Assembly (NCBI GenBank): GCA_022828105.1 | Contig: JAJEJC010000001.1 | Location: forward strand, 174,090 to 238,089 | Direction: 5' to 3' | DNA from: Dehalococcoidia bacterium | Lineage (GTDB): Bacteria; Chloroflexota; Dehalococcoidia; Bin125 | Length of the DNA stretch: 64,000 nucleotides | Shown: positions 3,625 to 49,927 of the stretch, piece after piece | Numbering within the stretch: the first letter of the stretch is position 1 | Layout of the letters: each line of letters begins with the position of its first letter | Notes under the pieces: generated by a model | Seen by the model: the letters and a program-made list of their open reading frames with translations, nothing else | Databases searched by the model: none | Told to the model about the DNA's origin: nothing | Program-made: the position numbers and the translations under genes

Positions 3625-3755
3625 CGATCTTCTCCCGTTTCACTGTCCTGACGCGTTGGCGACGGCTCAATCCGATCTCTGCGTTCGCGTGCGCGCAGAG
3701 TACCACCGCGCGCACGCAATCGATTGCAAGCGTGCTACGAGTTTCAGGCGGACCC

Positions 3756-4322: not shown

Positions 4323-4360
4323 GCTTCCGCGATTGGCACGAGTCTAGGGCTTGCTGCGCG

Positions 4361-6095: not shown

Positions 6096-6130
6096 GAGAT
6101 GAGGTTATCGGGCGTTGTTGGATCGTGAGG

Positions 6131-6190
6131 TGGGGAACCCCCCTCTGCCTTCGGCATCTCCCCCCGCTTGCGCGGGGGGAGAGGGGAGAC
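6131..6190. repeat. Palindromic G/C-rich repeat element, copy B.
   Basis: gggaacccccctctgccttcggcatctccccccgcttgcgcggggggagaggggag. Same family and same orientation as copy A. Confidence 0.8.
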
Positions 6191-6266
6191 CAGAGATGTT
6201 GGTTGAGGGAACGCGAGAGACCCGCGCCGGGGCGCGGGTCTCTGTTGGGTGAACCCGGGTGGTGGA

Positions 6267-11600: not shown

Positions 11601-11876
11601 GCGCAGGCGGCGGTGGAGGTGGGCCTGGTGCTGATTGCCGGAGTCGGCCTGGGATTCGGACTGGGCCGGGCCGTCGCCGGCGCACTGCTCGCATTCCTCG
11701 ATGTGACGAGCGACGGTGTCGCGGCCGCGCCGCCCACGGCGTTGTCGATTGACTGGGCACTAGCCGGGATCGGGGTAGGCGTCGTGGCCGCCTGCGCGAT
11801 CCTGGGTACGTCGGCGATTGCCCGCTGGGCGACGGGACGCGATGCCGCGCCGCTGTTGCGGGAAGGCGCCGACTGA
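8637..11876 (+). CDS. Large duplicated FtsX-like (MacB-type) ABC permease, 1079 aa.
   Basis: N-terminal TM, extracellular domain and FtsX 4-TM bundle occur twice. The C-terminal MRTVGSGRAGL...LIAGVGLGFGLG resembles FtsX. Confidence 0.75.
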   Translation: MLGLLRLLRLAALRELRGGWALMLAASALLIIAAGLVALPLVFRAASADLALRETIEQSNRAVHFVDHTRADRPATQADVVATAATAGELRERHLGSFKGLQGATKRILDSPQVTSSFTRLDNKITEEMLAYLTVFEDLNAHARVVSGRWPQAADEVVIGAKLAEQLSQDVGSTIVFGSAQPYTIVGLIEPVSVDVSGVLALHYTDVWFELQENLAGLVVIPYFAMFAGVEALEQVGLPLVHRFRTELNPDRLNSDQVEKAVEALAAWEQESNRLVGGSASALLLPTLQRFEREAQFSAGQSLLAGLQIAAVAMFGVALVGRVMAQRTRVDRERLAARGAKPWQQAGAQAMLGGLAAVPAALLGAPLAAFALSHAGRLDAVARVSGGEPFDTRLTWEAWALAVTGALIAWIAFAAPAWFDSRQRENPRVAAGRPRRRSLFQRAWLDVALLALATVLFLQFETEASGGAFSAFESGGMNPVLMLSPGLLLLGAALTIMRVAPRVWGIVARLLSRLPIPSWLYLGVLNVARNPTGPMLLTALTAFVTAVGLISATYASTIETVERERIEYQVGSDLRGVSIGGNLSNSTIGRVTEPLERRDGITSAAAYRGIGSIGGDREGSRVVLLGLQTSRIGETVLLDDDLLGVPSEQLLAAIAREPGRVGQALPDGAESLVIRVRSEPDNSNLEMAARVIDGHGQVQMRQFRSNTATTVDSEWQTLEAPLAGLNQPLRIAAIVLRPQARVVRAPTGTLFIAGLEARVGEQSVAVDAFDEAAPWLAASSGAGQDRIVFAGGNLEYRWSQLDANDERIIVRESPNLPVNAAMDRRSLETADLDVGDVVPIVLSNTTIPVRITAAVDYFPTLNPAQGGFLIADLLALRSAALVAAVRAVLPITEVWARTETGAANVIAAELLDEVYLSSTVLDADAQLAAAESDPLRSGGTAALFVVGFIGLLVVGSAALVFTMAAAGSERAREFALMRTVGSGRAGLTAQAAVEVGLVLIAGVGLGFGLGRAVAGALLAFLDVTSDGVAAAPPTALSIDWALAGIGVGVVAACAILGTSAIARWATGRDAAPLLREGAD

Positions 11877-14800
11877 TGGCCCGCCAACTGCCGACGCCGC
11901 AACAGAGTCAGAGTGATGCGCCCCGGCGGGGCGAGACGGCGCGCGAGTTGGCGCTGCTCGCGATCCGCCGGATCACGTCGGCACCGCGGCTCTCGGCGGT
12001 GCTGCTGATCGGCGCGCTGCTTGCGGTCGGTCTGGCCAGCAGCGCGCCGATCTTCATCGAGGCGGTTCGGGACCTGGGACTTCGCCAAACGTTGGCCGAA
12101 GCCGATCCTGCCTCGCTTGACCTGCGCGTCGTCCGCTCGAACATCACGGCCAATCAGGAATCGGTTGGCTCGGTTGAGTCGGTGATCCAAACGGAGGCCG
12201 GCAGCGCGCTCGGAGCGCTCAGCTCCGAGCGAATGAGCGCGATTCGGACCGGCGGCTTCACGTTGCGCAGCGACGATCAGCCGTTCAACCCGCCGGATCC
12301 GCCGCACGCGACGTTCCTGGCCCAGAACGACCTGGCGGATGTATCGCTGCTGGCGGATGGTCGCCTGCCGGCTGTTGCCGAGGGAGTGATCGAGGTAGTC
12401 GTCGAGTCGCCGCAGGCGGAACGGTTCGGACTCGTCGTGGGCGACGAGCGCCTGGCGCAGCCGTTCTGGCTGGGCACGCAGCACGAGACGCGGGTGCGCA
12501 TCGTAGGCCTGGTCGAGCCATCGACGGACGAGCGGCGCTGGTCGACGCTGGACCCGCTGTACTTGCCGGTGGCCGCGCGCGACTCCGAACTGCGCTTCTG
12601 GACCAGCCGGGAGAGCATCCTCGGCATCCTGGCCGACCATTCGCCAACGCTGCGGCTGACCGTATTGCAGCGCTACCGAACCGATCTGGCCGGCGTCTCG
12701 GCGACGCAGGCGTCGGCTGCTGCCGATGCGCTCGAACGGATGACGCGGCGGATCGCGCAGGCGATTGACGGCGTGCAGCAGGAGACCGAGTTGGTCGACA
12801 CGCTGGTGGGGTTCCGGGAGCGATTCCAGTTCGCGCAATCGACGCTGCTGATGATCGTCTTGCAACTCGTGGGCGCGGTGCTGGTCTATGCGGTGGTCGC
12901 CTCGGCGATGTTGGCCGAGCAGCGCACCGAGGACACGGCCTGGCTGCGTTCGCGCGGCGCGCGGCAACGGGACGTGGCGGTGTTGCACCTGGTTGAGGCG
13001 GCGATGCTGACCGCTCCGGCGATTGTGCTCGGTCCGCTGATCGGAGTGGGGCTGGTCAGCCTGCTCGGCTTTGTGCCGCCGTTCGACGAGGCGCTTCGGG
13101 AGATCGGGTTCGGCCCGTTCCTGCCTGCGCCGCTTCCGGCCGAATCCTGGTACCTGGCGCTGGGCGCCGGCGCGTTGGCGCTGATTGCGCAGGCCGTGCC
13201 GACGTACCGCGCGACGCGCCAGACGATGGTGACCACAAGGAGAGAGCGAGGCCGTCCGCCCGCGTCGTGGACGCAGCGGGCTCTGATCGACGCGGCTGTT
13301 GTGGCGCTGGGGGCGCTGCTGATCTTCGAGCTGCAGTGGGCCGGGGACCCGATCGATTCGCCGCTGGTCGGGGAGACGCGGCTGGACTGGTTGGCGGTGG
13401 CGACGCCGACGGTGTTGCTGTTCGTGGTCGGACTGGCGGTGCTGCGGCTGTTTCCGACGGCGATGCGGGGCCTGGCCCGCGCCGCGTCGCCGCTGCGATG
13501 GCTCACGCTGTTGCTGGGCGCGTGGTACCTGGGACGGACACCGACCCACTACGGACGCACGGTGTTGCTGCTCACTATCGCCGGCGCGCTGGCCGTGTTC
13601 GCGGCGTCGTTCCGGACCACGCTCGACGCGTCCTACGACGATCGCGCGTTGCATGCGGTCGGCGCTGTGGTGCGCGTGCAGGAGCCGCTCTCGCAGACCC
13701 TGCCGTTCGATCGGATTGCCGAGTCGACGGGCAAGCCGGTGGCGCAGGTGCAGCGGATCACGGGCACGTTCGACGGCGACGAGGACTCGGGCAAGCTGCA
13801 GATTGTCGCTCTCGACGCCTCGACGGTCGCGGGCCAGATGCGCGAGGGCGGGGTCGACTGGTCGATGTCGCCGCAGGAACTCGACACGATCGGCCGGCCA
13901 ATCTCGCAGGCCGAGCGACCGATCCTTGAGTCCGGCGGGCGGGTCAGTCTGCGCCTGACTCCGGTGGGCATCGGACAGAGCGTCACGCTCGGGATCAAGG
14001 TCCAGGACGCGATCGGGCGGTACTGGTGGTATCGGCTGGGAGAGTTGTCGCAGTCCGATAGCGAGACGATTGAGCTGAGCGCCACGATTGGCGGCGAGCC
14101 GACGCTGTACATCCCGCTTGAAGGCGCGAGAGTGGTCGAGCGACGCAGCGCCTGGCGTCCCGGGGTCGGGGAGCGTCCCGAGTGGCCGCTGCAGTTGGTC
14201 TCGGTCGATGTTGCGCTGGCGCGAGCGCCGGGAGCTGTGGTCCTGCACTCGCTCGAGTACCGCTTCGCAGGCGAGACGAGCGTGATCGCCGACTTCAATC
14301 TCGACGAATGGGAGGCGATGCCGCTGTCGGCGGGCGAGGAAGCGGTCGACAGACTTGAGGCCGTGGAGGGCGGTTCGCGATACCGCTGGGATGCGACGCC
14401 GACGTCGCTGCGCGGGGTGCACTACCGCGGCGACAGCGAGCCGCTGCCGGTGCTGCTCTCGTCGGCGGCGATGGCGCAGGGCCGGTTGCGGATCGGGGAG
14501 CTGGTGCGGCTGCGGATTGGTCCGACGCCGATGCGGTTCGAGGTGGTCGGAGAGTTCAAGACCTTCCCCACGTACGACGAGCAGCGCGACGATCCGATCG
14601 TGATCCTCGATCGCGCGTCGCTGGTCGGACGCATCTACGGCAGCGCGTCGGCCGGCGTGTCGCTGGCGGTCGACGATGAGTTGTGGATTTCCGCTCCAAT
14701 CTCGGAGTGGCAGACACTGATCGTTGAGCAAGATGCGGCGGTGGAGAGCGATCAGGCCAACCGGTTCAATGAAGATTCCGACACGCAAGTCACTACTCGT

Positions 14801-15418
14801 ATTGGAATCACGATCATCACTAGATCCGTGCGTCCGGATGACGAACGAGCTTCGACATCGGAGATTGAGCAGCTTGCGGCAGGCGAAGCAGAGGAACAGC
14901 CGCCCCAGGTGCCACACGCAGATGCAACGGTCAGCGGCATTCTGACGCTCGACCAGGCACGCAGTGATTTGGCTGCCGATCCGCTGATTGTGGCCTCGTG
15001 GAACGGCGTCTTCATTGGGGCGCTGGCGGCGGTGGCGATTGCCTCGGCGTTCGGGCTGGTCGTGCTGACGGCGGTGACGGCGCAGGCGCGCAGGGTGGAG
15101 TTCGCGGTTTGCCAGAGCGTGGGCATGAGCATGCGCCAGATCCTGGCAATGATCGCGCTGGAGCAGTCGATTGTGATCGCGATCGGTCTTGGCGCGGGAT
15201 TGGTAGTGGGCACGCAAGCGGGCGCAATCCTGCTTGACTTCTTTGCGCTCACACCGGACGGCCGGGACGTCGTGCCGCCGCTGCAATTCATCGTCGACTG
15301 GCCGGGCGTGGCGGTGCTGTTCGGGGCGTTGGCCGGCCTGTTCGCGCTCAACCTGGGCGCGTTCCTCTGGTTCCTGCGGCGGATCGAGTTGCACGGGGCA
15401 TTGCGGCTGGCGGCATAG
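11876..15418 (+). CDS. Second large duplicated FtsX-like ABC permease, 1180 aa, translationally coupled to the previous gene by an ATGA overlap.
   Basis: VCQSVGMSMRQILAMIALEQSIVIAIGLGAGLVVG is an FtsX signature, and the permease architecture is repeated. The start overlaps the stop of the upstream gene. Confidence 0.75.
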   Translation: MARQLPTPQQSQSDAPRRGETARELALLAIRRITSAPRLSAVLLIGALLAVGLASSAPIFIEAVRDLGLRQTLAEADPASLDLRVVRSNITANQESVGSVESVIQTEAGSALGALSSERMSAIRTGGFTLRSDDQPFNPPDPPHATFLAQNDLADVSLLADGRLPAVAEGVIEVVVESPQAERFGLVVGDERLAQPFWLGTQHETRVRIVGLVEPSTDERRWSTLDPLYLPVAARDSELRFWTSRESILGILADHSPTLRLTVLQRYRTDLAGVSATQASAAADALERMTRRIAQAIDGVQQETELVDTLVGFRERFQFAQSTLLMIVLQLVGAVLVYAVVASAMLAEQRTEDTAWLRSRGARQRDVAVLHLVEAAMLTAPAIVLGPLIGVGLVSLLGFVPPFDEALREIGFGPFLPAPLPAESWYLALGAGALALIAQAVPTYRATRQTMVTTRRERGRPPASWTQRALIDAAVVALGALLIFELQWAGDPIDSPLVGETRLDWLAVATPTVLLFVVGLAVLRLFPTAMRGLARAASPLRWLTLLLGAWYLGRTPTHYGRTVLLLTIAGALAVFAASFRTTLDASYDDRALHAVGAVVRVQEPLSQTLPFDRIAESTGKPVAQVQRITGTFDGDEDSGKLQIVALDASTVAGQMREGGVDWSMSPQELDTIGRPISQAERPILESGGRVSLRLTPVGIGQSVTLGIKVQDAIGRYWWYRLGELSQSDSETIELSATIGGEPTLYIPLEGARVVERRSAWRPGVGERPEWPLQLVSVDVALARAPGAVVLHSLEYRFAGETSVIADFNLDEWEAMPLSAGEEAVDRLEAVEGGSRYRWDATPTSLRGVHYRGDSEPLPVLLSSAAMAQGRLRIGELVRLRIGPTPMRFEVVGEFKTFPTYDEQRDDPIVILDRASLVGRIYGSASAGVSLAVDDELWISAPISEWQTLIVEQDAAVESDQANRFNEDSDTQVTTRIGITIITRSVRPDDERASTSEIEQLAAGEAEEQPPQVPHADATVSGILTLDQARSDLAADPLIVASWNGVFIGALAAVAIASAFGLVVLTAVTAQARRVEFAVCQSVGMSMRQILAMIALEQSIVIAIGLGAGLVVGTQAGAILLDFFALTPDGRDVVPPLQFIVDWPGVAVLFGALAGLFALNLGAFLWFLRRIELHGALRLAA

Positions 15419-28483: not shown

Positions 28484-29191
28484 CTAGCGGCTGGTGTAGA
28501 AGTTCTGGTCGTGCGGCAGCGCGCCGGTCCACTTGTCACGCGGCTGGCCGTCGGCGCTGAGGAAGGGTGGGAACAGCGATTCCAGTTCCTGGCGGATCGG
28601 GTCGCCCTCGGGCAGCATGCGCGAGAAGTCGCCGGTCGGCTCCGGCCGCCGCTTGCGGCCGCCGTGGGCGTGCTCGTCGTCGACGACCTGCTGCAGCAGC
28701 ATCAGGCCGGCGAGCAGGGACTCGGGCCGCGGCGGACAGCCGGGCACGTAGACATCGACGGGGACGACGTTGTTGACGCCGGGCAGCGTCGAGTAGCCGT
28801 GGGCGAAGGGTCCGCCGATGTTGGAGCAGGAGCCCATCGAGATGACCCACTTGGGCTCGGGCATCTGCAGGTAGATGCGGCGCACAGGCGGCGCCATCTT
28901 CCAGGTCACGGTGCCGGCGACGATCATCAGATCGGCCTGTCGCGGCGAGGCGCGAAAGATTTCGGCGCCGAAGCGCGACAGGTCGTAGCGGGCGTTAGCG
29001 GTGGCGATCATCTCGATCGCGCAGCAGGCGAGGCCGAACATCGCCGGCCAGAGCGACGACCGCCGGGCCCAGCCGAAGACCTTGTCGACCGTCGAGACGA
29101 GGATTTGAGAACGAAGCTCGTCCTCGACATCGGTGACCGGGTCGAGCAGAGGGATCGGCGCCCCTCCAGTGTCAATCGTCGGAGAAACCAT
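28484..29191 (-). CDS. nuoB: NADH-quinone oxidoreductase subunit B (NuoB/Nqo6, N2 cluster) with a ~60-aa C-terminal extension.
   Basis: [20 protein letters not shown] and GCPPRPE are NuoB Cys motifs. Confidence 0.85.
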
Positions 29192-29318
29192 GCCAACTCC
29201 GTTCAGCCATCCGCGTCAGGATACACGAGCCTTCAAATTGTTCGCCGTGGGCGGGAGCGGCCAACCTGGGCGGCGATGGTAGGTGATCTCGATCGACAAG
29301 GGTGAAACCGCGCCTCGG

Positions 29319-29561
29319 TCAGGCGGGAACCTGCTCGATGTCGAGTTCGGGAAGCACGTTCCGCTCGCGCGCGTGCTCGATGGTCAATGCGACCGGGTTG
29401 CCGTCGCAGTCCAGCTCGAGCAGCGTTTGGTGATCGAGATCGACGATGTCGGTGATGCGTCCGACGGAGAAGACGAACATCAGCGTGTCGGTGTCCTTGG
29501 AGTAAATCCGATTCACTGCCTGAACCTTCCGTCGATAAACGCTGTCACTGACTAGTCGCAC
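29319..29561 (-). CDS. DUF2283-family small protein with a GTG start.
   Basis: IYSKDTDTLMFVF and DLDHQTLLELDCDGNPVALTIEHA match the DUF2283 pattern (YD...D.L...LD.DG.lvGIEi). Confidence 0.6.
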   Translation of the reverse strand: MRLVSDSVYRRKVQAVNRIYSKDTDTLMFVFSVGRITDIVDLDHQTLLELDCDGNPVALTIEHARERNVLPELDIEQVPA

Positions 29562-30111
29562 TCGGAGCTGGACCGCCGATGCTGCCCGTAGGCTTCCTCG
29601 AGCGCCGCATACTCTTGGAAGTACTTCTCCCAGCTCCCGGAGACGCGCTCGCGGAGCTTGCGGGCCTCTTCAGGGTCCATCGGCGGTCCGCCGCCTCGCA
29701 CCGCCTGGCCGACGGTCAAGAGCTTCTCTTCGTCCGGAATTGCGCGTCTCTTCCCGATCGCTGTCCACCCACTTTACTCCGCCAGACCGGGCCCACGCGC
29801 ACAGCAACCGATACAGCACCGGCGTTCTGACCGACGCTCCAATTCGGATATATCCTCAACATCGCGTCAACAGAGCCAATGTCGAGGATAACGTTCGGCT
29901 CACTAATGGCTCAAACTGAAGAACTCCCGTGAATGAAGAACATAGAGGCATCAAGCAAAGACCAGCACGGCGACTGTCGCCTAACAGACTCTCACGAGAC
30001 GGCTGCAGTCATTATACACCCTACTCGTTCCGGCCTCTATTCTAGACTCTTGAAGAACTGGTCTACCTCAATGCGGGAAAGTTCTGGGCCGGGGGACATT
30101 CTCTCCAGTTG

Positions 30112-30348
30112 TCATTGGCAAAGATCGTTCACTGCGTCTGCAATTGAATGGTAGTTAGCCGTGTTGCGAATCAACCCATCTTCGACTACGTGATTTCCAG
30201 TTGAATTCGTGAATCTCTTGTCATAGGACTTAGCGATGGAAGTGCCGCCAGCCCTGCCGATTGATTGGCCCTCACAAAAGACCTCCAGGACTCCATCACG
30301 TTTTTCGATCTCGAACTTCGTGTGTGCGTAGATGTACTGCTTCTTCAC
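30112..30348 (-). CDS. Hypothetical 78-aa protein inside a low-GC islet (GTG start).
   Basis: AAGGAA-like ribosome-binding site. GC is ~50 percent against ~67 percent for the flanks. No family recognised. Confidence 0.35.
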   Translation of the reverse strand: MKKQYIYAHTKFEIEKRDGVLEVFCEGQSIGRAGGTSIAKSYDKRFTNSTGNHVVEDGLIRNTANYHSIADAVNDLCQ

Positions 30349-30719
30349 TCTCTGTTCCTTAGCATCTCAGCGGGTGGCTCCATTGCGCATGAGCGTATCT
30401 AGGATTTCCTTATGTGCAAGCCTTCCGCTCGCGTAGCGACCGCCACGCTTGGGAGCCCTCGGTACTGGGCGGAGTGAGGTTGCCACCTGCCGCGCTCTAG
30501 TGCGGTCGATGTCCCATTGAGGTGTCGGTGCGAAGTGCGCGAGTGTCGTCCTGACTTGGAATCGTTTCTATCTCTCGGCGGAAGAGACTGCCGTGGCCAA
30601 CCAAGCAGGACCATCCCACCCGATACAGTGTCCCAATGACCGACTGGACCAACCAGCTCTACTTCAGCGACATCATCTCCGTCTTGCGGGAGCACATTGC
30701 TGACTGGTAGGCGGGTCGG

Positions 30720-31364
30720 CTACCGAGGTCGCCAGATTCGGTGGAGGTCGACGGTGAGGCCGGGGAGGACTTCCTCGTCCGATAGCTCGTTGGGGCGCTC
30801 CAGGAGGATTGGCTCGGCGTTGGGGCGATGGACCCAGACTTGCTGATTGAACGGGTCGACCAGCCAGCCGAGGCGGACGCCGTTGCGCAGCCACAGATCC
30901 ATCTTGGCCTGTGCTCACTCCAGTTGGTCAGATACCGAACGTACTTCAACCACAAAGTCGGGCGCGACCGGCAACGGGTCGCCGTCGAAGAGGTTGGCAC
31001 TCGCCATTCGCTCGGCGCTGACCCACGCGGCGTCGGGTACTCGCCGGTTGCCGTCGGGCAGCTCGAACTGTCCGCCCGAGCCGTAGACCATGTCTCCCGC
31101 GTCCGTATCCATCCAGTTGCCGATCGCCAGGACGAACGTCATGGCAATCCACTCGCTGGTGTGACCGCTTGGCATGTTCAAGATCAGCGCTCCCGTCTCG
31201 TCCACCTCAAACGGCACGGTCTCGTTCAGGCTGCAGAGTTCAAGCAGCTTCTCGTTGGTCAGTTCCCAGTCGGGCGGAAGGCGCAGGGCGAGCGGGCCGA
31301 TGCCCAGCGACGCCAGCAGCGCCGTCACTTCTTCAGCTTTGCTCTTGGGATGTGCCGCAACCAT
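30720..31364 (-). pseudogene. Uma2-family (DUF820) endonuclease interrupted by a single in-frame TGA at 30915-30917.
   Basis: The N-terminal ORF ends ...VVEVRSVSDQLE-TGA and the protein continues in the same frame as AQAKMDLWLRNGVRLGWLVDPF. It is colinear with the intact paralog at 33315-33989. Confidence 0.7.
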
Positions 31365-31373
31365 GTGGACAGT

Positions 31374-32168
31374 CTACCGAGCGCGTTCGGGCTTCCGGGC
31401 CCACAGCAGAATTCGCTTGAAGGGGTAGAGGAAGGGGCGGTCGTTGGGGAGGATGGTGAGGAGGCGGTCTCGATAGGCGGCTTCGAAGGCCTCGTAGTCC
31501 GGGGTCGGCAGGCGGTCGCGGTAGCCGGTCAGAAGCGAGCCCTTGACCCACTCGACGACGTCCTCGGGACCGGGCAGCCGATGCAGGTAGACCTGCACGC
31601 GGACGTGCTGCTCGGCGAATCCGAGCCGGGCGAGCTGCTCGGCGTACCACTCGGGCGACTCGATGGCGTGTCGGTAGACGAAGCCGTCGAGCGCGTCGGC
31701 GTGCGGCTGCTGCTGCGCCACCTCGCGGGCGACGGCGTGCGAGGGATGGTCCTCGTTAGCCGGCATCTGCACCGCCAGTTGCCCGGCGGAGCGCAGCATC
31801 GCCGCTAACCGGGGGAACAGCGAAGCATGATCTTCCACCCATTGCAGCGACGCGTTGGCGAAGACCAGGTCGAGCTTGCTCGCCTCGAACGCCGCGATGT
31901 CGCCTCGTTCAAAGCGCAGGCCGCTGCCGGCATACTGCTCCGTGTGCTCCAGCATCGCCTCCGAGCGGTCGATGCCGATCGTCTCCTCCGCCATCGTGCG
32001 GATGTGCAACTCCTGCGTCAACTTGCCGGTACCGCAACCTAGATCGACGGCGCGCCCGGCATACACCGGCTCGACCAAGTTGAGGAGGTCGTAGAACGGC
32101 TGCTCCCGCTCGGCGCGGAAGCGCGCATACTGGTCGGGTTGCCAGCCGTCGGGTCGTTGCGAGGTCAC
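31374..32168 (-). CDS. tam: Trans-aconitate 2-methyltransferase.
   Basis: VDLGCGTGKLT, LVFANASLQWV and LAVQMP match E. coli Tam closely. Confidence 0.85.
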   Translation of the reverse strand: MTSQRPDGWQPDQYARFRAEREQPFYDLLNLVEPVYAGRAVDLGCGTGKLTQELHIRTMAEETIGIDRSEAMLEHTEQYAGSGLRFERGDIAAFEASKLDLVFANASLQWVEDHASLFPRLAAMLRSAGQLAVQMPANEDHPSHAVAREVAQQQPHADALDGFVYRHAIESPEWYAEQLARLGFAEQHVRVQVYLHRLPGPEDVVEWVKGSLLTGYRDRLPTPDYEAFEAAYRDRLLTILPNDRPFLYPFKRILLWARKPERAR

Positions 32169-32185
32169 GGATGTGAGCCTAGCAA

Positions 32186-33361
32186 TTGCATCGCCCTAGC
32201 CTGAGACAACGCAAGGGACGGAGGCGGGCTGTCGTGGAACTGAGCTGGTCCGACGCACGCAGGCTGCGCATCCAGGCGCAGGGCCTGGGCTTTGAGCGCG
32301 CGGCCGATGTCGAGTCGGCGGTTCGCGCGGCCGGCGCGATCCAGGCGCAGGACCGGCTGGGGATGCTGCTCGGCGTCGGCACGCGATCGGTCGGGCTAAC
32401 GGCTGCCGACGTCGACCACGCGCGCAACGTGGAGCGGTCGGTGGTGCGGTCGTGGCTGATGCGCGGGACGCTGCACCTGGTGGCGGGGTCCGACTTCCGC
32501 TGGATGCTCGGACTGCTCGGCGAGAAGATGGACGCCAAGGCGCTTAAGCGTCGCGCCGACCTGGGAATCTCGGCAGACGACCACGCGCGGGTGCTGGAGC
32601 TCTTCCGCCGACATCTCGCCGGCGGAGGAACGATCGTGCGAAGCGAGATTCCCGGCGCGCTCGAAGCTGCGGGACTGCCGGCGGCCGGACAGGCGCCGAG
32701 GCATCTGCTGCGCACAGCCTCAATGCTGGGCGTGATCTGCTTCGGCGCCGATCGCGACGACGACGAGGCGCACGTGCTGATCGACGAATGGCTGCCCGAT
32801 CCGGGTTTAGAGCCGTCCGATCCCGCGGCCGAGCTCGCGCGCCGCTACTTCGCCGCCTACGGTCCTGCCACGGCCGCTGACTTCCGCTGGTGGACCGGAC
32901 TCCCCGCCGCCGACACGAGGCGCGGATTCGAGGCTGTCGCGGGCGAACTTGCCGAGGTCAGCGTCGAGGGAACCGCGATGTGGATGACGTCCGAGGCGGC
33001 TGCTCAGACAGAGCAGGTGCTGGCTGCGCCCGACCATCGTGTGCGCGTCGCGGGACCGTTCGATCCCTATCTGCTCGGCTATGCGAAGCGCGAATTGGGC
33101 GTGGCCGGTTCGTTGCTCAAGCGAATCAACGCCGGCGGGGGGATGATCCGCTCCTGCGTCCTGATTGACGGGCGGCTCGTGGGCACCTGGGATCGCAAGC
33201 GGCGGGCGCGCGGACTCGCGGTCACGGTGACAGCGTTCGAGGCGCTCTCGGACGAGGCGCAGTCGCAGCTTGACGCCGAGTTTGCCGAGATCGGACGCTT
33301 CCTCGGTACGGAGATCAACTGGTCTCTGGCGTTGGATCCTGCTGCGGCCAGATCCGAGTGA
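32186..33361 (+). CDS. Winged-helix HTH_42 (YcaQ/AlkZ-like) DNA glycosylase family protein. The probable true start is GTG at 32234 after a GGAGG site.
   Basis: RRLRIQAQGL is the family N-terminus. AGAIQAQD gives a Q-x-Q type motif. Length and overall architecture fit the HTH_42 family. Confidence 0.65.
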   Translation: MHRPSLRQRKGRRRAVVELSWSDARRLRIQAQGLGFERAADVESAVRAAGAIQAQDRLGMLLGVGTRSVGLTAADVDHARNVERSVVRSWLMRGTLHLVAGSDFRWMLGLLGEKMDAKALKRRADLGISADDHARVLELFRRHLAGGGTIVRSEIPGALEAAGLPAAGQAPRHLLRTASMLGVICFGADRDDDEAHVLIDEWLPDPGLEPSDPAAELARRYFAAYGPATAADFRWWTGLPAADTRRGFEAVAGELAEVSVEGTAMWMTSEAAAQTEQVLAAPDHRVRVAGPFDPYLLGYAKRELGVAGSLLKRINAGGGMIRSCVLIDGRLVGTWDRKRRARGLAVTVTAFEALSDEAQSQLDAEFAEIGRFLGTEINWSLALDPAAARSE

Positions 33362-33989
33362 AGTCGATGGTCAGGTCTTCGGCGATCTCGGTCGCCGTCA
33401 ATGACTCCGGCCGTTCCACCTGCTCCGCCTCTTGTTCGGGTCGGTAAATCCAGACGGACGCGTCGAACGGGTCGACCAGCCAGCCCAATCGCGCGCCCTG
33501 CGCGACCCACATCTCCATCTTCTCCTGCTGGGCAGCAAGCTGATCACTGGCCGACCGTACTTCAACGACAAAGTCGGGACACACGCGCCAGATGGTATGG
33601 CCATCACCGGCTATCTCTGCCAGTCGCGCATCGCTGATCCACGCGGCATCGGCCATCCGGCGCTCTCCATTCGGCAACATGAAAGTGGCGCTCGATTCGA
33701 ACGCACGCCCGTTGGCCCTGGTGTCACTCCAAATCAGCGTCTGCGAGTAGATGCGGCCACCCTGATCGCTGCTGTCCGGACCAGTCGGCGCCATGATCAA
33801 CAGTCCTCCCTCGCAGTCGGATTCGATCCGCCAGCCCTCGTTCAGGGCGCCAAGTTCAAGGAACTGCTCGTCCGTCAACTCCCAGAGTCGTGGCAGTTGC
33901 ACTCGAAGCGGAAATGCGCCGTCCGCAACCGCCCGCAATTCACTCGCTGGCCCCGCCGCAGGCGACTTGGGTCGTTCCGCCGTAACCAT
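33315..33989 (-). CDS. Uma2-family (DUF820) putative restriction endonuclease-like protein, intact.
   Basis: PDFVVEVRSASD and GARLGWLVDPFDASVWIYRP are Uma2 family hallmarks. Confidence 0.75.
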   Translation of the reverse strand: MVTAERPKSPAAGPASELRAVADGAFPLRVQLPRLWELTDEQFLELGALNEGWRIESDCEGGLLIMAPTGPDSSDQGGRIYSQTLIWSDTRANGRAFESSATFMLPNGERRMADAAWISDARLAEIAGDGHTIWRVCPDFVVEVRSASDQLAAQQEKMEMWVAQGARLGWLVDPFDASVWIYRPEQEAEQVERPESLTATEIAEDLTIDFTRIWPQQDPTPETS

Positions 33990-34013
33990 CGATTTCCTCC
34001 AGTGCCACCAATC

Positions 34014-35183
34014 CTAGACCGGCGACAGCGCGCGCAGCCGTGCCGTGATCTCCTCGATTGACCGCGCGATGCCCTGGATCTGCTCCTCGGTATTGGACTG
34101 GCCCAGGCTCAGACGAACGGTGCTGTGCGCGGTGTCGGAGTCGAGACCGATCGCCGAGAGCACGTGACTCGGCTCGGTGCTGCCCGTTGAACAGGCGCTG
34201 CCCGACGACGCCGCGAAGCCATCGAGGTCGAGCTGCAGCAGGATGCTCTCCCCTTCGACGCCGGGGAAGCTGACGTTGAGGTTGTTGGCCAGCCGGCGCG
34301 ACCAGTCGGAAGGACCATTCAGGCGGAGCGGATGCACGCGTTCGTTCAGTTCTCGCCACAGGCTGTTGCGCAGCTCGGATGCATGACCTGTGCGAAGCGA
34401 TCGTTCTTCTTCGGCCAGCGCCAACGCCTTGGCCAGACCAACCGCCTGCGCCACCGACTCGGTGCCTGCGCGGCGTTCCTCTTCCTGACCTCCGCCCAGT
34501 TGCAGCGCCTGCAGCGGCGTACGCCGCCTGACGTAGAGCACGCCCGCGCCCTTGGGACCGTAGATCTTGTGGGCCGTCAGGGACATCATGTCGACGCCCA
34601 GCGCGTCGGGACGGATATCGACCGCGCCTGCCGCCTGCACCGCATCGGTATGCACAATCGTGCGCCGGTTCCGCGCCTTCACCGACTGCGCGATTTCAGC
34701 AATCGGCTGCAGCGTCCCGATCTCGTTGTTGGCCGCCATGATGCTGACCACGGTGGTGTCGTCGCGCACGGCCGACGCCAGCGCGTCGGGGTCCACGAAA
34801 CCATCCGAGTCGACGCCCAGCACGGTTAGCTCGAAGCCCTCGCGTTCGAGCTGCTCCATCGTGTGCAGCACGGCATGATGCTCCGTGGCCTGCGTGATCA
34901 GGTGCCGTCCGCGACCCAGCTCGCGCTGCGCCAATGCCGCGCCGCGGATTGCCAGGTTGTCCGATTCCGTCCCGCCCGAATTCAGCACTACCTCCGACGC
35001 TGAGCATTCGAGCACCGCGGCGATCTCGTCCCGAGCTTGATCGAGGAGTCCCGCCGCATACTGGGCTTCGCGGTAGATTCCCGATGGGTTGCCCCAACCA
35101 AGTTCGAGCGCCGGGATCATTGCTTCCAGCACCCGAGGGTCCAGGGGGGTCGTCGCCGCGTGGTCGAAATAGGCTCGGTTCAT
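34014..35183 (-). CDS. Cysteine desulfurase (NifS/IscS-like class V aminotransferase).
   Basis: SLTAHKIYGPKGAG carries the PLP lysine, and SSGSACSTGS is the active-site Cys loop. Confidence 0.85.
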   Translation of the reverse strand: MNRAYFDHAATTPLDPRVLEAMIPALELGWGNPSGIYREAQYAAGLLDQARDEIAAVLECSASEVVLNSGGTESDNLAIRGAALAQRELGRGRHLITQATEHHAVLHTMEQLEREGFELTVLGVDSDGFVDPDALASAVRDDTTVVSIMAANNEIGTLQPIAEIAQSVKARNRRTIVHTDAVQAAGAVDIRPDALGVDMMSLTAHKIYGPKGAGVLYVRRRTPLQALQLGGGQEEERRAGTESVAQAVGLAKALALAEEERSLRTGHASELRNSLWRELNERVHPLRLNGPSDWSRRLANNLNVSFPGVEGESILLQLDLDGFAASSGSACSTGSTEPSHVLSAIGLDSDTAHSTVRLSLGQSNTEEQIQGIARSIEEITARLRALSPV

Positions 35184-35203
35184 GCGCTCAGCGTAACGGG
35201 TTT

Positions 35204-35317
35204 CGGAGCCTGCTCTCGGACCGGGGCCAACGCGTAACGCACGTTGGGCGGGCGCCGAGACGGGAACACGGAGTCGGGGACGGGGTGATTGTGCGCTGGT
35301 GGCGATCAGGGCAAATC
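35204..35317. promoter_or_regulatory. Divergent intergenic region with two exact copies of TCGGAGCCTGCT (35204-35215 and 35306-35317).
   Basis: A 12-bp direct repeat spaced 102 bp apart between the divergent desulfurase and NuoG-like genes. GGGGAGG ribosome-binding site at 35373. Confidence 0.3.
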
Positions 35318-35383
35318 GGAGCCTGCTGATAGACTGCGGGCTGATTCCGCGTGCATGCGCCCGGCTGCACCTGGGGAGGCCCT

Positions 35384-38011
35384 ATGGCGACGATCACGAT
35401 CAATGGACGATCGATTGAGGCTGAGGTTGGCGCACCGCTGGTTGAGGTGATTAAGAACTCCGGATTCCCGATCTCGAACCTTTGCTACCTGGACGGACTG
35501 CCGCCCTACGCGGGTTGCCGCACCTGCGCGGTCGAGGTCGAGGGGATGCGCGGACTGCCGCTGTCCTGCACGACCACGGTGATGGACGGCATGGTCGTGC
35601 GAACCGACACGCCGGAAGTGACCGAGATGCGGCAGGAAGTCCTGGCGGTGATCCTGGCCAATCACTCCGACCGTTGCCTGACCTGTCACCGGATCGAACA
35701 CTGCCGCACGGGCGAGATCTGCCTGCGCGACAACGAGGTCACGCATCGCTGCGTGACCTGCTCGAAGAACTACCGCTGCGAACTGCAGACCAGTTGCGAC
35801 GCCGCCGATGTGGGACGGGCCAACGTTGAGCCGTATCTCGACGAAGCGCGAACCTACTACCGCTTCCAGCAGCCGGAGCCCGATCGGGCCAATCCGTTCT
35901 TCGAGTTCGACCCGCAGATGTGCATCATTTGCACGCGCTGCGTGCGGGCCTGCGACGACCTGCGCCACACGACGGCGATCACGCTGGCGGGGCGCGGCTT
36001 CTCGACCCGGATCGCGTTCGGCGCGGGCGGGCAGATTGACGAGTCGAACTGCGATTTCTGCGGCGCCTGCGTCGATGTCTGCCCGACCGCGACGTTGATG
36101 GAAGCGCCGAACAAGTGGGTCGCACGTCCCGACAAGTGGGTAACCACGACCTGCACGGAATGCTCGATGGGTTGCACAATCCAGATGGGGGTGCGCGACG
36201 GGCGCGGCGTCCAGGTGCGGCCCGGCAACGGAAACGATGTCTCGCGATCGCAGATCTGCGTGCGCGGACGATTCGGATACGACCAGACGCGAGACAAGGA
36301 TCGACTTCGCGCGGCGTCGATTGGCCGTGGGGAAGACGCCTTCGAGCAATCCGGGGAGGCCGTGGTCGAGCACGCGGCGGCTGCGCTGTCGGCGCTGATT
36401 GATCAGCATGGTCCGTCGGCGGTCGGCGTCCTCGGCTCGGGACAGGCGACGCTGGAAGAGCTGTACGCGCTACGGACACTCGCGGCCAGGTTGGGCGTCG
36501 TCAATCTCGACTCCTCGCTGGGGCCAATCACGGCCGCGATCGGTGAGGCGCTGAATGACGCCTTCGGTTCGGAGCATCTGCCTGCGCGGCTGACTTCGGT
36601 GGAATCGGCCGACCTGATTGTCGCCATCGGCGACGACATCTCTTCCTCAAACAATGTGCTGGGCGTGCGGATCAAGGACGCGGTGGCCAACAACGGCGCA
36701 TCGCTGATCAGCATCTCGTCGCGGCGCAATCCGTTGGCCGAATACGCGGTCGACGACGCGCATGCGATTCACCCGGCCAACGGCGATCTCGCGTCGGTCG
36801 CGCAAGCACTGGCGTCGAGCGTGCTGAAGGACCTCGACGTGCGTACGGGGCTAACCGCTGTTGAAGGACTTGCCGACATGAGCGGGTCCGTCGATGGCAT
36901 CGAGTCGGCCGCGGCGACGCTCCTGCGCCGTCGCGGGGGAGCGGTTGCGATAGTCGTCGCGCCGTCTCGCGCCAACGCGTCGCAGGCGGGCGCGCAGGTA
37001 CGCGCAGCGTCGAACCTTGCGATCGCGCTGGCAGGACCGGCAGACGCGCCGGCGGCGCTTCACGTCCTGCCTCCGGAAGCGAACTCGGTCGGTCTGCGCG
37101 ACCTGGGGATTGCTCCGGGCGAGGGCGGACTGGACATCGGCGGGATGCTCGAAGCGGCGCGCAGCGGCAGCCTGAAGGCGCTGCTGGTGGCACGGGACAA
37201 CCCCGTGTTGCTGCATCCTGACCGCGCCGCAACGATTGCGGCGCTCGACGCTCTCGATTGCCTGGTCGTGATCGACGAAGTGGAAAGCGAACTGTCGCAG
37301 CGAGCGACGCACGTGCTGCCCGACGTTTCGGCCTTTGCCAAGGATGGCCACATCACCAATGCGGACCGGCAGATCCTGCGCCTGCGCAGCGCGGCGGCTC
37401 CGCAGCGCGGTGCGGGGACGCTGATCTCCTGGTTGGCCGAACTCGCCGCCCGCTTGCCTGCGGTCGAGACGCCGACGATCACTGAAGACGGCGATCCTGG
37501 CGAGCCGATACCGGCGCCCCAACAGCCGGCCGATGAGCGCGAAGCTCGCGCCGCGCTGGCCGCGCTCGACAACCGCTATGAGGCGCTGGCGGCGGCCGGA
37601 GCCACGCAGTCGCGGATGCCGATCAACGGCGCGGCGACCCAACGCTTCCTCGCGGTCGGAGACATCGGCGCGCCGGGAGCCGAGCAAGACCTGACTCTGC
37701 TGAGCGGGCGCGACCTGTACACCGACCGACTGTCGGCGGCGCGAGGCGATGTCAATTCCGATCTGCTGCATCGGTCCGGCTCGGTGCAGATCCATCCTGC
37801 CGACGCGGCAGCCCGCAACATCGCCGACGGCGCAAAGGTCAGCCTCTCGGCGAACGAGGCGCAGATGATCCTGCCGGCGGAGATCACCGAGGACGTGCCG
37901 CAGGGCGCGGTCTGGGCCTCGCTCCTGCACGACGGCGGAGCGCTCCAGGCGCTGCATCGGGCAGAAGCGGACTCGCCGCCGACGGCAGAGGTGTCGCCGA
38001 CTCCCGACTAG
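35384..38011 (+). CDS. NuoG-like 75-kDa subunit family protein (2Fe-2S, 4Fe-4S, molybdopterin-oxidoreductase-like domains). An FdhA-like protein is not excluded.
   Basis: N-terminal CxxC...C 2Fe-2S ferredoxin fold, CHRIEHC, CVTCSKNYRC and CIICTRCVRAC FeS motifs. GGGGAGG ribosome-binding site. Start at 35384. Confidence 0.8.
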   Translation: MATITINGRSIEAEVGAPLVEVIKNSGFPISNLCYLDGLPPYAGCRTCAVEVEGMRGLPLSCTTTVMDGMVVRTDTPEVTEMRQEVLAVILANHSDRCLTCHRIEHCRTGEICLRDNEVTHRCVTCSKNYRCELQTSCDAADVGRANVEPYLDEARTYYRFQQPEPDRANPFFEFDPQMCIICTRCVRACDDLRHTTAITLAGRGFSTRIAFGAGGQIDESNCDFCGACVDVCPTATLMEAPNKWVARPDKWVTTTCTECSMGCTIQMGVRDGRGVQVRPGNGNDVSRSQICVRGRFGYDQTRDKDRLRAASIGRGEDAFEQSGEAVVEHAAAALSALIDQHGPSAVGVLGSGQATLEELYALRTLAARLGVVNLDSSLGPITAAIGEALNDAFGSEHLPARLTSVESADLIVAIGDDISSSNNVLGVRIKDAVANNGASLISISSRRNPLAEYAVDDAHAIHPANGDLASVAQALASSVLKDLDVRTGLTAVEGLADMSGSVDGIESAAATLLRRRGGAVAIVVAPSRANASQAGAQVRAASNLAIALAGPADAPAALHVLPPEANSVGLRDLGIAPGEGGLDIGGMLEAARSGSLKALLVARDNPVLLHPDRAATIAALDALDCLVVIDEVESELSQRATHVLPDVSAFAKDGHITNADRQILRLRSAAAPQRGAGTLISWLAELAARLPAVETPTITEDGDPGEPIPAPQQPADEREARAALAALDNRYEALAAAGATQSRMPINGAATQRFLAVGDIGAPGAEQDLTLLSGRDLYTDRLSAARGDVNSDLLHRSGSVQIHPADAAARNIADGAKVSLSANEAQMILPAEITEDVPQGAVWASLLHDGGALQALHRAEADSPPTAEVSPTPD

Positions 38012-47642: not shown

Positions 47643-48836
47643 GTGCACAGCATGCGGACTCGCTTGCGAGTTGTCGCCGCCCGAATTAACGTGCGAACAC
47701 GAACCGGGAACCTGCCGATTGCGCGGGCCGGTTCGCAGCAACATCAACACGGGGGACCGGCCTTGACTCAATCCGACGAACATCCACAATCACCTCGGTC
47801 CGGCGATGCACGCGGCACCGCAGTTGCCGATCCATCCGACAGCCCGAAGCAAGCCCTTCGCGACTACCACCAGATCACGCGGCTGAGCGAATCGCAGGAG
47901 GATGAGGACCGGATTGCGGAGCAGCCGAAGCTGGTCAGCCGCTTCTATGACGCCGTAACCCGGTTCTACGAGTTTGGCTGGGGTACGACCTTCCACTTCT
48001 CGCCGCGCCGACCGGGCGAGAGCCTGGTCGAGTCGCAACGCCGGCACGACGAGGGGATCGGCGAGACGCTGCGGCTCAAGCCCGGCATGGAGGTCGCCGA
48101 TCTTGGATGTGGGGTTGGCGGACCAATGATCTCGATCGCGCGCGCGACCGGAGCCAGCATCACCGGGATCAACTTCAGTCCCTTGCAGATCGAGCGAGGC
48201 CAACGACTGGTGGCGAAGGCGGGGCTCGAAGACACTTGCCGCTTCCTGTACGCCAACTTCATGGACGTCCCGCTCGAGGATGGCGCGTTTGACGCGATCT
48301 ACTCGTTTGAAGCGGTCTGCCACGCGCCCAACAACCTGCTGCTCTTCCGCGAGCTGTACCGGCTGCTCAGGCCGGGCGGCGAGATTGCCATCGTCGATTG
48401 GTGCTTCACGGATCGCTTCGACCCGGACGACGCGCGGCATGCGCGCATCCGCAGTGAAATCGAGACCAACAACGCGGTCCCCGATCTGCTCACGACGACG
48501 CAACAGGTGGAGACCGCGCAGAAGGCAGGGTTCGAGATCATCGAGGCGATTGATCAGCAGGCGGAGTTTGGCGATCCGCGCGCTCCCTGGTACATGGCGC
48601 TGCAGGGACGCGACTTCTCGTTCACATCGTGGGCGCGAACGCCGATGGGGCGCGGCTTTACGGCGGCGGTGACGAGGCTGCTCGAGTTCGTCCGCATTGC
48701 GCCGTCTGGCACGAGCGAGACCGCCAGGTTCCTGAACGTCGCCGCCGACGCCCTGGTCGAAGGTGGCGAACTGGAGATCTTCACGCCCAGCTTCCTGATC
48801 CACGCTCGCAAGCCGGAGTCGACCGAGGCGTCATGA
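47643..48836 (+). CDS. SAM-dependent methyltransferase of the sterol-24-C / MPBQ (ERG6/SMT-like) family. The start is uncertain, with TTG at 47764 preceded by GGGGGA.
   Basis: FYDAVTRFYEFGWG...FHF and VADLGCGVGGP are the SMT family signature and motif I. Confidence 0.75.
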   Translation: MHSMRTRLRVVAARINVRTRTGNLPIARAGSQQHQHGGPALTQSDEHPQSPRSGDARGTAVADPSDSPKQALRDYHQITRLSESQEDEDRIAEQPKLVSRFYDAVTRFYEFGWGTTFHFSPRRPGESLVESQRRHDEGIGETLRLKPGMEVADLGCGVGGPMISIARATGASITGINFSPLQIERGQRLVAKAGLEDTCRFLYANFMDVPLEDGAFDAIYSFEAVCHAPNNLLLFRELYRLLRPGGEIAIVDWCFTDRFDPDDARHARIRSEIETNNAVPDLLTTTQQVETAQKAGFEIIEAIDQQAEFGDPRAPWYMALQGRDFSFTSWARTPMGRGFTAAVTRLLEFVRIAPSGTSETARFLNVAADALVEGGELEIFTPSFLIHARKPESTEAS

Positions 48837-49927
48837 TGCTGAGCCTGCGGTCTCGACGCAGGGACGACCTCACCGCACTCGACGCGCTGCGCGCCGCGAC
48901 GTATCCCTATCCCTACCCGACGGGCTGGTACCGGATCGCCGACGCGGACTCGATCCGACCCGGCGAGATACGCGCGATCACCTGCCTTGGCAAGCAGTTC
49001 GTCCTCTGGCGAACGCGGGAGAGCGGCGAGATTCACTTGATGGACGCCGCCTGCCCGCATCTCGGCGCCAATCTTGCCGGCGGGCGAGTCGAGGGCGATT
49101 GCATCGAGTGTCCGTTTCACCTCTGGCAGTTCGACGGCACAGGGCGGGCGCAGCGGATTCCCTATAGCGAACAGCCGCCCGAGCGCGTGTTGACCCGGCC
49201 TTACGAGTTGGAAGATGTGCACGGGCAGTTGTTCCTGTTTCACCGCAGCGAGGCGGACCCGGGGGCTGCGGATCAACCGCCCCCCTACGACGTGCCGCGG
49301 ATCGCCGAGGTCGACGAGGGCAGCTTCGTGCGCCGAGGTCAGCGGAACGCGGGGCGTGTGCGGATGCACATCATCGAGATCTGCGAAAACGCCGTCGATA
49401 CCGCGCACTTCCAGGCCTTGCACAGTCAGCTGCACCTGCCCTGGACGCAGGTCCGCGTGCCGGGGGTCGAAATCGTTCACCGCGCCAAGTGGGTGCTGGA
49501 CGAGGACCAGCCCTGGATGATGCACTTCGACGACGACGTGTCGCTGCGGGCGTTGGGTCGGACGCTGCCCGGCGGCGAGACCCACGTGCGGGTCTCCTAC
49601 CACGGACCCGGCAGCGTGCTGACCTTCCGCTTCGAGCTTCCCGGTTGGGGCGAACTCGCCATGGTCAAGACCTTTCTTCCGATTGGTCCGTTGGAACAGC
49701 AGATTGACTTCCAGTGGTACGCCCCGAGGTCGGTGCCGCGCTGGTTGGTCTGGTGGGTGATCGGCAACTGGGTCTCGCAGTTCCCGCAGGACATCGACAT
49801 CTGGGAGAACAAGAGCTTCCAGGCTCAACCCAAGCTCTGCCGCGACGACGGCCCGGTCTTCGCCATGCGGCGCTGGTTCGAGCAATTCCTGCCCGAGTCC
49901 GACGCCGAGCGACTGCCGGGCGCGTAA
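48833..49927 (+). CDS. Rieske [2Fe-2S] non-heme-iron oxygenase (KshA/Neverland-like family), translationally coupled to the methyltransferase by an ATGA overlap.
   Basis: CPHLGANL...CIECPFHLWQF is the Rieske CxH...CxxH motif. ENAVDTAHFQALH is the mononuclear iron D-x2-H-x4-H motif. Confidence 0.8.
   Translation: MMLSLRSRRRDDLTALDALRAATYPYPYPTGWYRIADADSIRPGEIRAITCLGKQFVLWRTRESGEIHLMDAACPHLGANLAGGRVEGDCIECPFHLWQFDGTGRAQRIPYSEQPPERVLTRPYELEDVHGQLFLFHRSEADPGAADQPPPYDVPRIAEVDEGSFVRRGQRNAGRVRMHIIEICENAVDTAHFQALHSQLHLPWTQVRVPGVEIVHRAKWVLDEDQPWMMHFDDDVSLRALGRTLPGGETHVRVSYHGPGSVLTFRFELPGWGELAMVKTFLPIGPLEQQIDFQWYAPRSVPRWLVWWVIGNWVSQFPQDIDIWENKSFQAQPKLCRDDGPVFAMRRWFEQFLPESDAERLPGA

Follow-up and report, generated by a model that had tools for sequence, protein, structure and literature searches.

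A predicted AlkZ-like DNA glycosylase of the Q-x-Q type at a fixed chromosomal position in a lineage of Dehalococcoidia, with Uma2 genes that flank it in some genomes

Previous work sorted the HTH_42 DNA glycosylases by motif into AZL proteins with (Q/H)-Phi-Q, YQL proteins with Q-Phi-D and AZL2 proteins with H-Phi-(S/T)-(D/E) (PMC9040887, PMC7367128, PMC8934636). The catalytic motif of AlkZ of Streptomyces sahachiroi is Q37/Q39 (PMC9040887), and mutation of either glutamine in AlkZ, HedH4 or LldU5 abolishes or strongly lowers excision (PMC9040887, PMC7367128, PMC8934636). In Streptomyces, it is genes of the Q-x-D (YQL) and AZL2 types that were reported to keep a conserved position (PMC9040887). 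Of a second family, Uma2 (COG4636, DUF820), Feder and Bujnicki wrote that its genes proliferate, undergo tandem duplication, lack recurrent neighbours and may be selfish, and the D...E-x-R...K arrangement is their "PD-EXR-K" variant (PMC551604). Members of both families lie together in a 64,000-nucleotide stretch of a Dehalococcoidia bacterium (contig JAJEJC010000001.1, positions 174,090 to 238,089; the window), where two Uma2 genes bracket a Tam-like methyltransferase gene and an AlkZ-like gene at window positions 30720-33989. An initial annotation took these four genes for an accessory DNA-damage or self-protection module. Here the AlkZ-like protein is confirmed as a genuine member of the HTH_42/AlkZ-like family, of the Q-x-Q (AZL) type, and its gene is vertically inherited at a fixed position in this lineage. 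The four genes are probably separate genes in an old common neighbourhood and not one system.

All four annotated genes were recovered in open reading frame (ORF) and Pfam checks. From left to right they are Uma2A, a pseudogene of the PD-(D/E)XK-type Uma2/COG4636 family (30720-31364, minus strand, with a Pfam Uma2 match in both halves); the Tam-like gene (31374-32168, minus strand), which encodes a class I S-adenosylmethionine (SAM)-dependent methyltransferase of 264 residues; the AlkZ-like gene (32234-33361, plus strand), which encodes a protein of 375 residues; and Uma2B (33315-33989, minus strand), which is intact and encodes 224 residues. The locus was compared with those of 11 close relatives (L001-L011), metagenome-assembled Chloroflexota/Dehalococcoidia genomes whose AlkZ-like proteins are 63-91% identical to that of the window, and with that of a more distant relative, L017, giving 13 genomes with the window. 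Judged by their isolate names, several of these genomes may be sponge-metagenome bins.

The AlkZ-like protein matches Pfam PF06224 over the whole profile (positions 1-329 of 329) with an E-value of 1.7e-65 and 222 bits, the cut-off being 25.9. AlkZ (5UUJ) was the only solved relative found by sequence search, with E 4.8e-19 by phmmer and E 2.7e-38, over the full length, by a 33-sequence profile. An AlphaFold model made from the 33-sequence alignment has a predicted local distance difference test (pLDDT) score of 94.5 and a predicted template-modelling (pTM) score of 0.92. In this predicted structure three winged-helix motifs and a C-terminal beta domain form a C-shaped fold. Foldseek searches with the model gave AlkZ 5UUJ as the best match (E 1.5e-24, template-modelling (TM) score 0.80), followed by AlkX/YcaQ with DNA (9ZD6, E 9e-14, TM 0.70) and by the Lhr C-terminal domain (TM 0.53). 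The family assignment made in the initial annotation therefore stands on both the PF06224 match and the fold match to AlkZ. With 13,447 cluster representatives matching at E <= 1e-3, this is a very large family. A TTG at 32186 is an alternative start for the AlkZ-like gene; the gene call on an identical public contig (P0001, 375 residues) and the alignment of homologs favour the GTG at 32234.

The initial annotation had pointed to the string AIQAQD as a Q-x-Q type arrangement. The string is present as residues A35-D40, with Q37 encoded at 32342-32344 and Q39 at 32348-32350, and the Q37-A38-Q39-D40 codons together span 32342-32353 on the plus strand. In both the single-sequence and the profile HMMER alignments to 5UUJ, Q37-A-Q39 falls on the Q-A-Q of AlkZ; that the two glutamines carry the same numbers in AlkZ and in the 375-residue AlkZ-like protein is a coincidence. 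All 112 of the full-length close homologs that were aligned have the form Q-(A/S)-Q-(D/E). Because Q-A-Q aligns with the AlkZ motif and is invariant among these homologs, we assign the AlkZ-like protein to the Q-x-Q rather than the Q-x-D type. A catalytic position with neither Q-x-Q nor Q-x-D would have spoken against the annotated glycosylase, and this is not what is seen, because Q-A-Q occupies the AlkZ-aligned catalytic position. In a representative set of 150 homologs at 31-77% identity, Q-x-Q was found in about 140 of 146 and Q-x-Q-(D/E) in about 103. We also asked if Q-A-Q-D might be a new motif variant; it is not, as Q-x-Q-(D/E) is the commonest form among the 150 representatives.

Comparison with the described classes bears out this placement. 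Like AlkZ and the other AZL proteins, the AlkZ-like protein has the (Q/H)-Phi-Q pattern at the position of AlkZ Q37/Q39, and it shares with AlkZ full-length homology, the predicted fold of three winged helices and a beta domain, and a length of 375 residues, equal to that of the deposited AlkZ chain. It differs from AlkZ in that identity is only about 25%, and in that the motif reads Q-A-Q-D where AlkZ has Q-A-Q-V; the Asp after the motif, invariant among the AlkZ-like protein's homologs within the form given above, is absent from AlkZ. The YQL protein YcaQ of Escherichia coli (AlkX, 9ZD6) belongs to the same superfamily, has the same fold and likewise has a conserved neighbourhood outside biosynthetic clusters, but the Q-Phi-D of YQL proteins is not found here, the third motif position being Gln, with Asp one residue later. 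Sequence similarity to E. coli YcaQ is marginal by profile: BLASTP gave no significant similarity between the two proteins, and an hhalign comparison was weak (probability 3.6%) with a gap inside the motif, so that it was not used for motif placement. AZL2 proteins of Streptomyces resemble the AlkZ-like protein in that position 4 of the motif is acidic, the only position in common, and in being AZL-like sequences with a conserved chromosomal position outside clusters; they are unlike it in having His and Ser/Thr, rather than Gln and Gln, at positions 1 and 3. By analogy with AlkZ, the protein is predicted to be a monofunctional DNA glycosylase.

One could suppose instead that the AlkZ-like protein is a non-catalytic winged-helix DNA-binding protein or regulator, as was proposed for the Lhr C-terminal HTH_42 domain. 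The NCBI label of the homologs is only "winged helix DNA-binding domain-containing protein", and the fold matches the Lhr domain too. The Lhr domain, however, lacks Q-x-Q (PMC9040887), while both glutamines are invariant in the AlkZ-like family, and the match to AlkZ is far better by TM score (0.80) than that to Lhr (0.53). We therefore regard an inactive protein as very improbable.

The surroundings of the AlkZ-like gene are conserved. The left boundary of the locus is a nuoB-like gene (Pfam Oxidored_q6; 28484-29191, minus strand), 92-97% identical in all loci, and the right boundary is a NifS/IscS-type cysteine desulfurase gene (Pfam Aminotran_5, NCBIfam NifS/IscS; 34014-35183, minus strand), 78-90% identical in all loci. 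In 11 of 11 close relatives the order is nuoI, nuoB, a variable stretch, the divergent tam and AlkZ-like genes, zero to three Uma2 genes, and nifS. Because tam and AlkZ-like occupy the same nuoB-nifS slot in every close relative, the pair was inherited in place among these genomes and not recently acquired. In L017, where nuoB is 92%, nifS 78% and AlkZ-like 50% identical, the AlkZ-like gene still lies between nuoB and nifS. Over these genomes AlkZ-like identity is 50-91%, so that the gene evolves faster than either boundary gene. The Tam-like gene, found in all 11 close relatives at 59-81% identity, is absent from L017, and the AlkZ-like homologs at 33-56% identity in L012, L015, L018 and L020 have neither tam nor Uma2 adjoining. 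Tam is thus a neighbour of AlkZ-like only within the closer clade. The window and L003 have a NuoG-like molybdopterin oxidoreductase gene right of nifS on the plus strand (35351-38011 in the window), but nine relatives (L001 and L004-L011) have it on the minus strand, left of nuoI. This placement is consistent with inversion of the whole nuoI...nifS block relative to the NuoG-like gene.

Conserved position bears on a second alternative, that the AlkZ-like protein protects against a genotoxic natural product made by the host or its community, as AZL proteins do in Streptomyces. Its Q-x-Q motif, its closest similarity to AlkZ and its faster evolution would all suit such a role; AZL proteins are enriched in biosynthetic clusters (PMC9040887), and a Trp-halogenase-like gene lies about 26 kb off. 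The genes within 10 kb on either side, however, are housekeeping genes: MTHFR, an Fe-S assembly gene, NuoI, NuoB, NifS, the NuoG-like oxidoreductase, VIT1 and HisG. Genes for polyketide synthases (PKS) and nonribosomal peptide synthetases (NRPS) were sought by Pfam in the 17 largest ORFs outside 22.2-43.4 kb and in the called genes of that central stretch; neither these nor other obvious genotoxin genes were found in the checked parts of the window. Self-resistance is disfavoured because of these housekeeping neighbours and the lack of PKS or NRPS genes in the 17 ORFs. Further, 12 genomes keep the gene in this slot among housekeeping genes, a habit that in Streptomyces typically belongs to the YQL and AZL2 types rather than to AZL genes borne by clusters (PMC9040887), and the Q-x-Q type makes up about 45% of the HTH_42 proteins as a whole, with many members from non-producers (PMC7367128). 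Whereas Streptomyces AZL genes vary in neighbourhood and copy number, the gene here has a conserved position with no biosynthetic cluster found nearby; the habit that is typical of AZL genes, though it does not define them (biosynthetic clusters, multiple copies, variable neighbourhood), is not seen. A role in toxin self-resistance is, in our judgement, highly doubtful.

The Uma2 genes show a different pattern. The two in the window are the only copies in its 64 kb, and bracketing of the tam/AlkZ-like pair is real there and no chance match on random sequence; it is, however, not a fixed feature. Uma2 genes flank both sides in 6 of the 13 genomes, the right side only in 5 and neither side in 2. 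Copy number is 0-1 to the left of tam/AlkZ-like and 0-3 to the right, with a total of 0 to 4 among the close relatives, and an A-type Uma2 is at the left in the window and in 4 of 11 close relatives. L005 and L011 have tam and AlkZ-like but not a single Uma2 gene, and the stops of AlkZ-like and nifS are then 12 nucleotides apart; with one Uma2 gene between the two stops the gap is 649-653 nucleotides, with two about 1310-1318, and with three 1990. A neighbour-joining tree built from five core proteins in concatenation, without bootstrap, does not place the two genomes without Uma2 as sisters. In L017 an A-type Uma2 (66% identity) is to the left and a B-type (64%) to the right of AlkZ-like. Recent mobile insertion was our first reading of the empty sites, and it was dropped in view of these L017 orthologs at 64-66% identity. 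Repeated loss from an old Uma2 array fits better, because L017 carries orthologous copies of both types. When filled and empty junctions were compared by eye, no clear target-site duplication or terminal repeat was seen; homology stops after the W-S-L codons of AlkZ-like. Long resident here, the Uma2 genes have duplicated in tandem and have repeatedly been lost.

Uma2A and Uma2B had been described as paralogs of the same architecture but not identical, and this description holds: the proteins are 43% identical over the full length, which makes them old paralogs. Uma2B scores E 4.8e-30 and 104.7 bits against Pfam Uma2 (PF05685, cut-off 27 bits), and the two halves of Uma2A score E 8e-15 (55.1 bits) and E 9e-09 (35.5 bits). 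Uma2B also matches PDB 1WDJ (TT1808) with E 8.9e-17 and, weakly, PDC-S03, a defence candidate of PADLOC (E 6.8e-08). The active-site positions of Uma2B are D114, E143-V-R145 and K157, that is, the near-invariant carboxylates and the Lys/Arg of the family. Those of Uma2A are D111, E140-V-R142 and K154, but an in-frame TGA at 30915-30917, codon 150, divides the gene into ORFs of 149 and 60 codons and removes the Lys, which lies four codons beyond the stop. The Uma2A orthologs in L001, L004, L009 and L010 are intact and have Arg at this site, and the closest two, those of L009 and L010, have CGA. Uma2A is therefore a fresh pseudogene, in which the stop was made by a single C-to-T change. Two contigs from other public assemblies (L013 and L014) are identical to the window across the Uma2A stretch and have the same split. 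Recoding of the TGA was considered and ruled out as unnecessary, the orthologs having Arg there and CGA to TGA being one transition. In comparison with described Uma2/COG4636/DUF820 proteins (PF05685; 1WDJ TT1808, 3OT2), the genes here are alike in their above-cut-off Pfam scores, PD-EXR-K arrangement, tandem duplication and patchy presence; unlike randomly scattered copies, they are long-term residents of one syntenic interval, and one is a pseudogene.

In a tree of the Uma2 proteins the A copies group tightly in a single clade and the B copies, tandem ones among them, fall into several subclades; the genes of a third clade lie elsewhere. Members of the third clade, 38-41% identical to A and B, are found near the NuoG-like gene in some relatives (L001, 1156-2601; L008, 5494-6075), and L001 has five Uma2 genes within 21 kb.

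Each Uma2 gene lies directly downstream of a neighbour on the same strand. Uma2A starts 9 nucleotides past the tam stop, Uma2B starts about 24 nucleotides past the nifS stop with GGAGG in the spacer, as it does in every filled locus, and tandem Uma2 copies are about 10 nucleotides apart. Each is therefore placed for read-through from a host transcript, and co-transcription with tam or nifS is probable. AlkZ-like and Uma2B are convergent, and their 3' ends overlap by 47 nucleotides (33315-33361). The final 10 codons of AlkZ-like are the antisense of the conserved "...FTRIWPQQDP" of Uma2B, and the extra C-terminal tail of Uma2B runs antisense into the AlkZ-like end. In genomes without Uma2 the AlkZ-like tail is different and shorter, ...WSLEVESTA* as compared with ...WSLALDPAAARSE* elsewhere.

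The Tam-like protein had been annotated as a trans-aconitate methyltransferase. Its similarity to PDB 2P35, deposited as trans-aconitate 2-methyltransferase, is full-length (E 2.6e-32, residues 8-256 against 5-255), and it shares with Tam proteins the class I SAM-dependent methyltransferase domains. The specific name is not upheld, as the protein falls well under both NCBIfam equivalog cut-offs for trans-aconitate 2-methyltransferase, scoring 186.9 bits where PRK01683 asks for 297 and 177.4 where PRK14103 asks for 320. Because of these scores we call it Tam-like only and assign no substrate.

The Tam-like and AlkZ-like genes are divergent, and the 65 base pairs between them (32169-32233) probably hold two back-to-back promoters, one for each gene. 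An alignment of 12 loci (the window and L001-L011) shows a conserved motif here, GTGAGCCTAGCAA-N11-12-CCTAGCCTGA. The motif holds two CTAG-centred TAGNCT hexamers on opposite strands, and these could serve as -10 elements for divergent promoters or as the site of a regulator. No match to the sigma-70 consensus was found in this intergenic region, and sigma-70 and terminator scans were uninformative. SOS control was considered and rejected: the intergenic alignment has no visible LexA box of the GAAC...GTTC type, only the CCTAGC-containing motif.

To the left of Uma2A, the stretch between nuoB and tam is variable, from about 115 base pairs in L003 to 5.2 kb in L006. In relatives it carries genes for a fusion of a DNA methylase (N6_N4_Mtase) with an Mrr-type endonuclease domain, for HigB/HigA and BrnT toxin-antitoxin proteins, for a DUF6602 protein and for a Ser/Thr kinase. 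The window has remnants of such cargo. A stump of 24 codons at 30636-30710 (plus strand), MTDWTNQLYFSDIISVLREHIADW*, is the 5' end of a DNA methyltransferase-endonuclease fusion gene: by blastn it is 82-86% identical to the start of a gene of 545 codons in L001 (6857-8494) and of one of 542 codons in L006 (7029-8657), and the L001 protein matches N6_N4_Mtase (E 4e-46) and Mrr_cat. About 1.5 kb of the fusion gene has been deleted in the window genome, while the gene is intact at the same spot in L001 and L006. A small DUF2283 gene (29319-29561, minus strand; Pfam E 7e-06) and an adjoining ORF of 42 codons (29552-29680, a gene call) are next to nuoB; window positions 29362-29777 match the DUF2283 segment 5271-5686 of L006 at 87% nucleotide identity, and in L004 the DUF2283 gene sits at a different place.

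Between these remnants is the low-GC islet (29800-30620, GC 0.535). The initial annotation had noted such an islet and tied it to the repair genes. By GC content the islet is real, at about 0.50-0.56 over 29800-30600 as compared with 0.664 for the whole window, but it is not tied to a repair module; it is debris and cargo of the variable spot, a decaying piece of it. No blastn or tblastx match to 29800-30620 was found in any related locus. An ORF of 78 codons in the islet (30112-30348, minus strand) is called as a gene in public assemblies; neither it nor the low-GC segment gave a hit in Pfam, NCBIfam, PADLOC, PHROGs or Rfam, and an Rfam scan of 28500-35500 gave no credible structured RNA.

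With these comparisons in hand, the proposal that Uma2A, tam, AlkZ-like and Uma2B form one unit, with the glycosylase unhooking lesions and the Uma2 nucleases acting on the DNA intermediates that result, can be weighed. In its favour, 6 of 13 genomes, L017 included, have AlkZ-like between an A-type and a B-type Uma2 gene, the 3' ends of Uma2B and AlkZ-like overlap, and relatives carry many defence-type genes in the interval. These points are outweighed by the comparative evidence. L005 and L011 keep tam and AlkZ-like without Uma2, L017 lacks tam, and L012, L015, L018 and L020 have AlkZ-like without either neighbour; the number of Uma2 copies is anywhere from 0 to 4. The A copy is absent from 7 of the 13 genomes, and that of the window is a pseudogene. 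The Uma2 genes are downstream of tam and nifS and not of AlkZ-like, and COG4636 genes in general lack recurrent neighbours (PMC551604). Together with the lack of PKS and NRPS genes in the checked parts of the window, these observations lead us to set the annotated module aside as improbable.

Functional coupling among the four genes thus appears to be lacking, though several observations pull the other way. The Uma2 flanks in L017, at 64-66% identity, are more conserved than the AlkZ-like protein itself at 50%, and since both Uma2 types flank AlkZ-like in so distant a genome, the association is old and selection for it is possible. The conserved motif between tam and AlkZ-like might reflect co-regulation, and the 47-nucleotide overlap of AlkZ-like and Uma2B could couple their expression. 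One AlkZ-like locus was seen per related genome, a count that covers the matched loci. In the literature searched, no paper was found that demonstrates an activity for the Uma2 family. Given the age of the Uma2 flanks, the nuoB-nifS interval might also be a long-lived defence hot spot in which the Q-x-Q-D glycosylase and its flanking Uma2 genes are kept together through cooperation, a suggestion to which we give hardly any credence. It is just as far from probable that, in such a setting, the glycosylase makes abasic sites in alkylated or hypermodified foreign DNA, or in toxin-damaged DNA, at which Uma2 then cuts. If true, this cooperative defence would be a first function for Uma2 and would extend the HTH_42 glycosylases to defence.

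In the preferred reading, that of four separate genes, the AlkZ-like protein would bind duplex DNA on the concave surface of its three winged helices, by analogy with AlkZ. Its substrates would be cationic N7-alkylguanine adducts or crosslinks, whose N-glycosidic bond it would hydrolyse by means of Q37 and Q39, leaving abasic sites for base excision repair. The gene would behave as a vertically inherited repair gene of fixed position rather than as a resistance gene of a toxin cluster. The Tam-like protein would be a small-molecule methyltransferase whose gene shares the conserved 65-base-pair promoter region with AlkZ-like, nothing else suggesting a functional link. The Uma2 genes would be long-resident COG4636 members, probably read from the tam and nifS transcripts, duplicating and lost repeatedly, with Uma2A just inactivated by the CGA-to-TGA change. 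The low-GC islet would be debris in a nuoB-tam spot where relatives carry restriction-modification and toxin-antitoxin genes.

The significance of the locus is modest, as it reveals no new system and its members are of known kinds. It does show that in metagenome-derived Chloroflexota/Dehalococcoidia genomes a predicted HTH_42 glycosylase of the Q-x-Q (AZL) type can occupy a conserved position among housekeeping genes. Given this position, the motif type alone should be taken neither as a sign of toxin self-resistance nor as a sufficient basis for resistance-guided genome mining. The locus also offers a clean natural series for the birth and death of Uma2 genes, with 0, 1, 2 or 3 tandem copies at one junction and a pseudogene made by one base.

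Other genes were noticed elsewhere in the window. The Trp-halogenase-like gene mentioned above (4467-6095, E 6e-44) encodes a FAD-dependent halogenase. Near it are a luciferase-like monooxygenase gene (6267-7562) and, about 1.4 kb further, a class-III aminotransferase gene (1586-3022); the three (1586-7562) may be a small tailoring or biosynthetic group. Two adjacent genes at 8637-15418 encode very large proteins of 1079 and 1180 residues with FtsX/MacB-type permease domains. At 47643-49927, an ORF for a sterol-methyltransferase-like protein of 397 residues (Pfam Sterol_MT_C E 1e-23, with CMAS/Methyltransf_11) overlaps an ORF for a Rieske/KshA_C-type oxygenase by about 200 nucleotides. The presence of such a bacterial homolog of sterol C-methyltransferases in this Chloroflexota genome could matter to the question of methylated sterols of bacterial origin.

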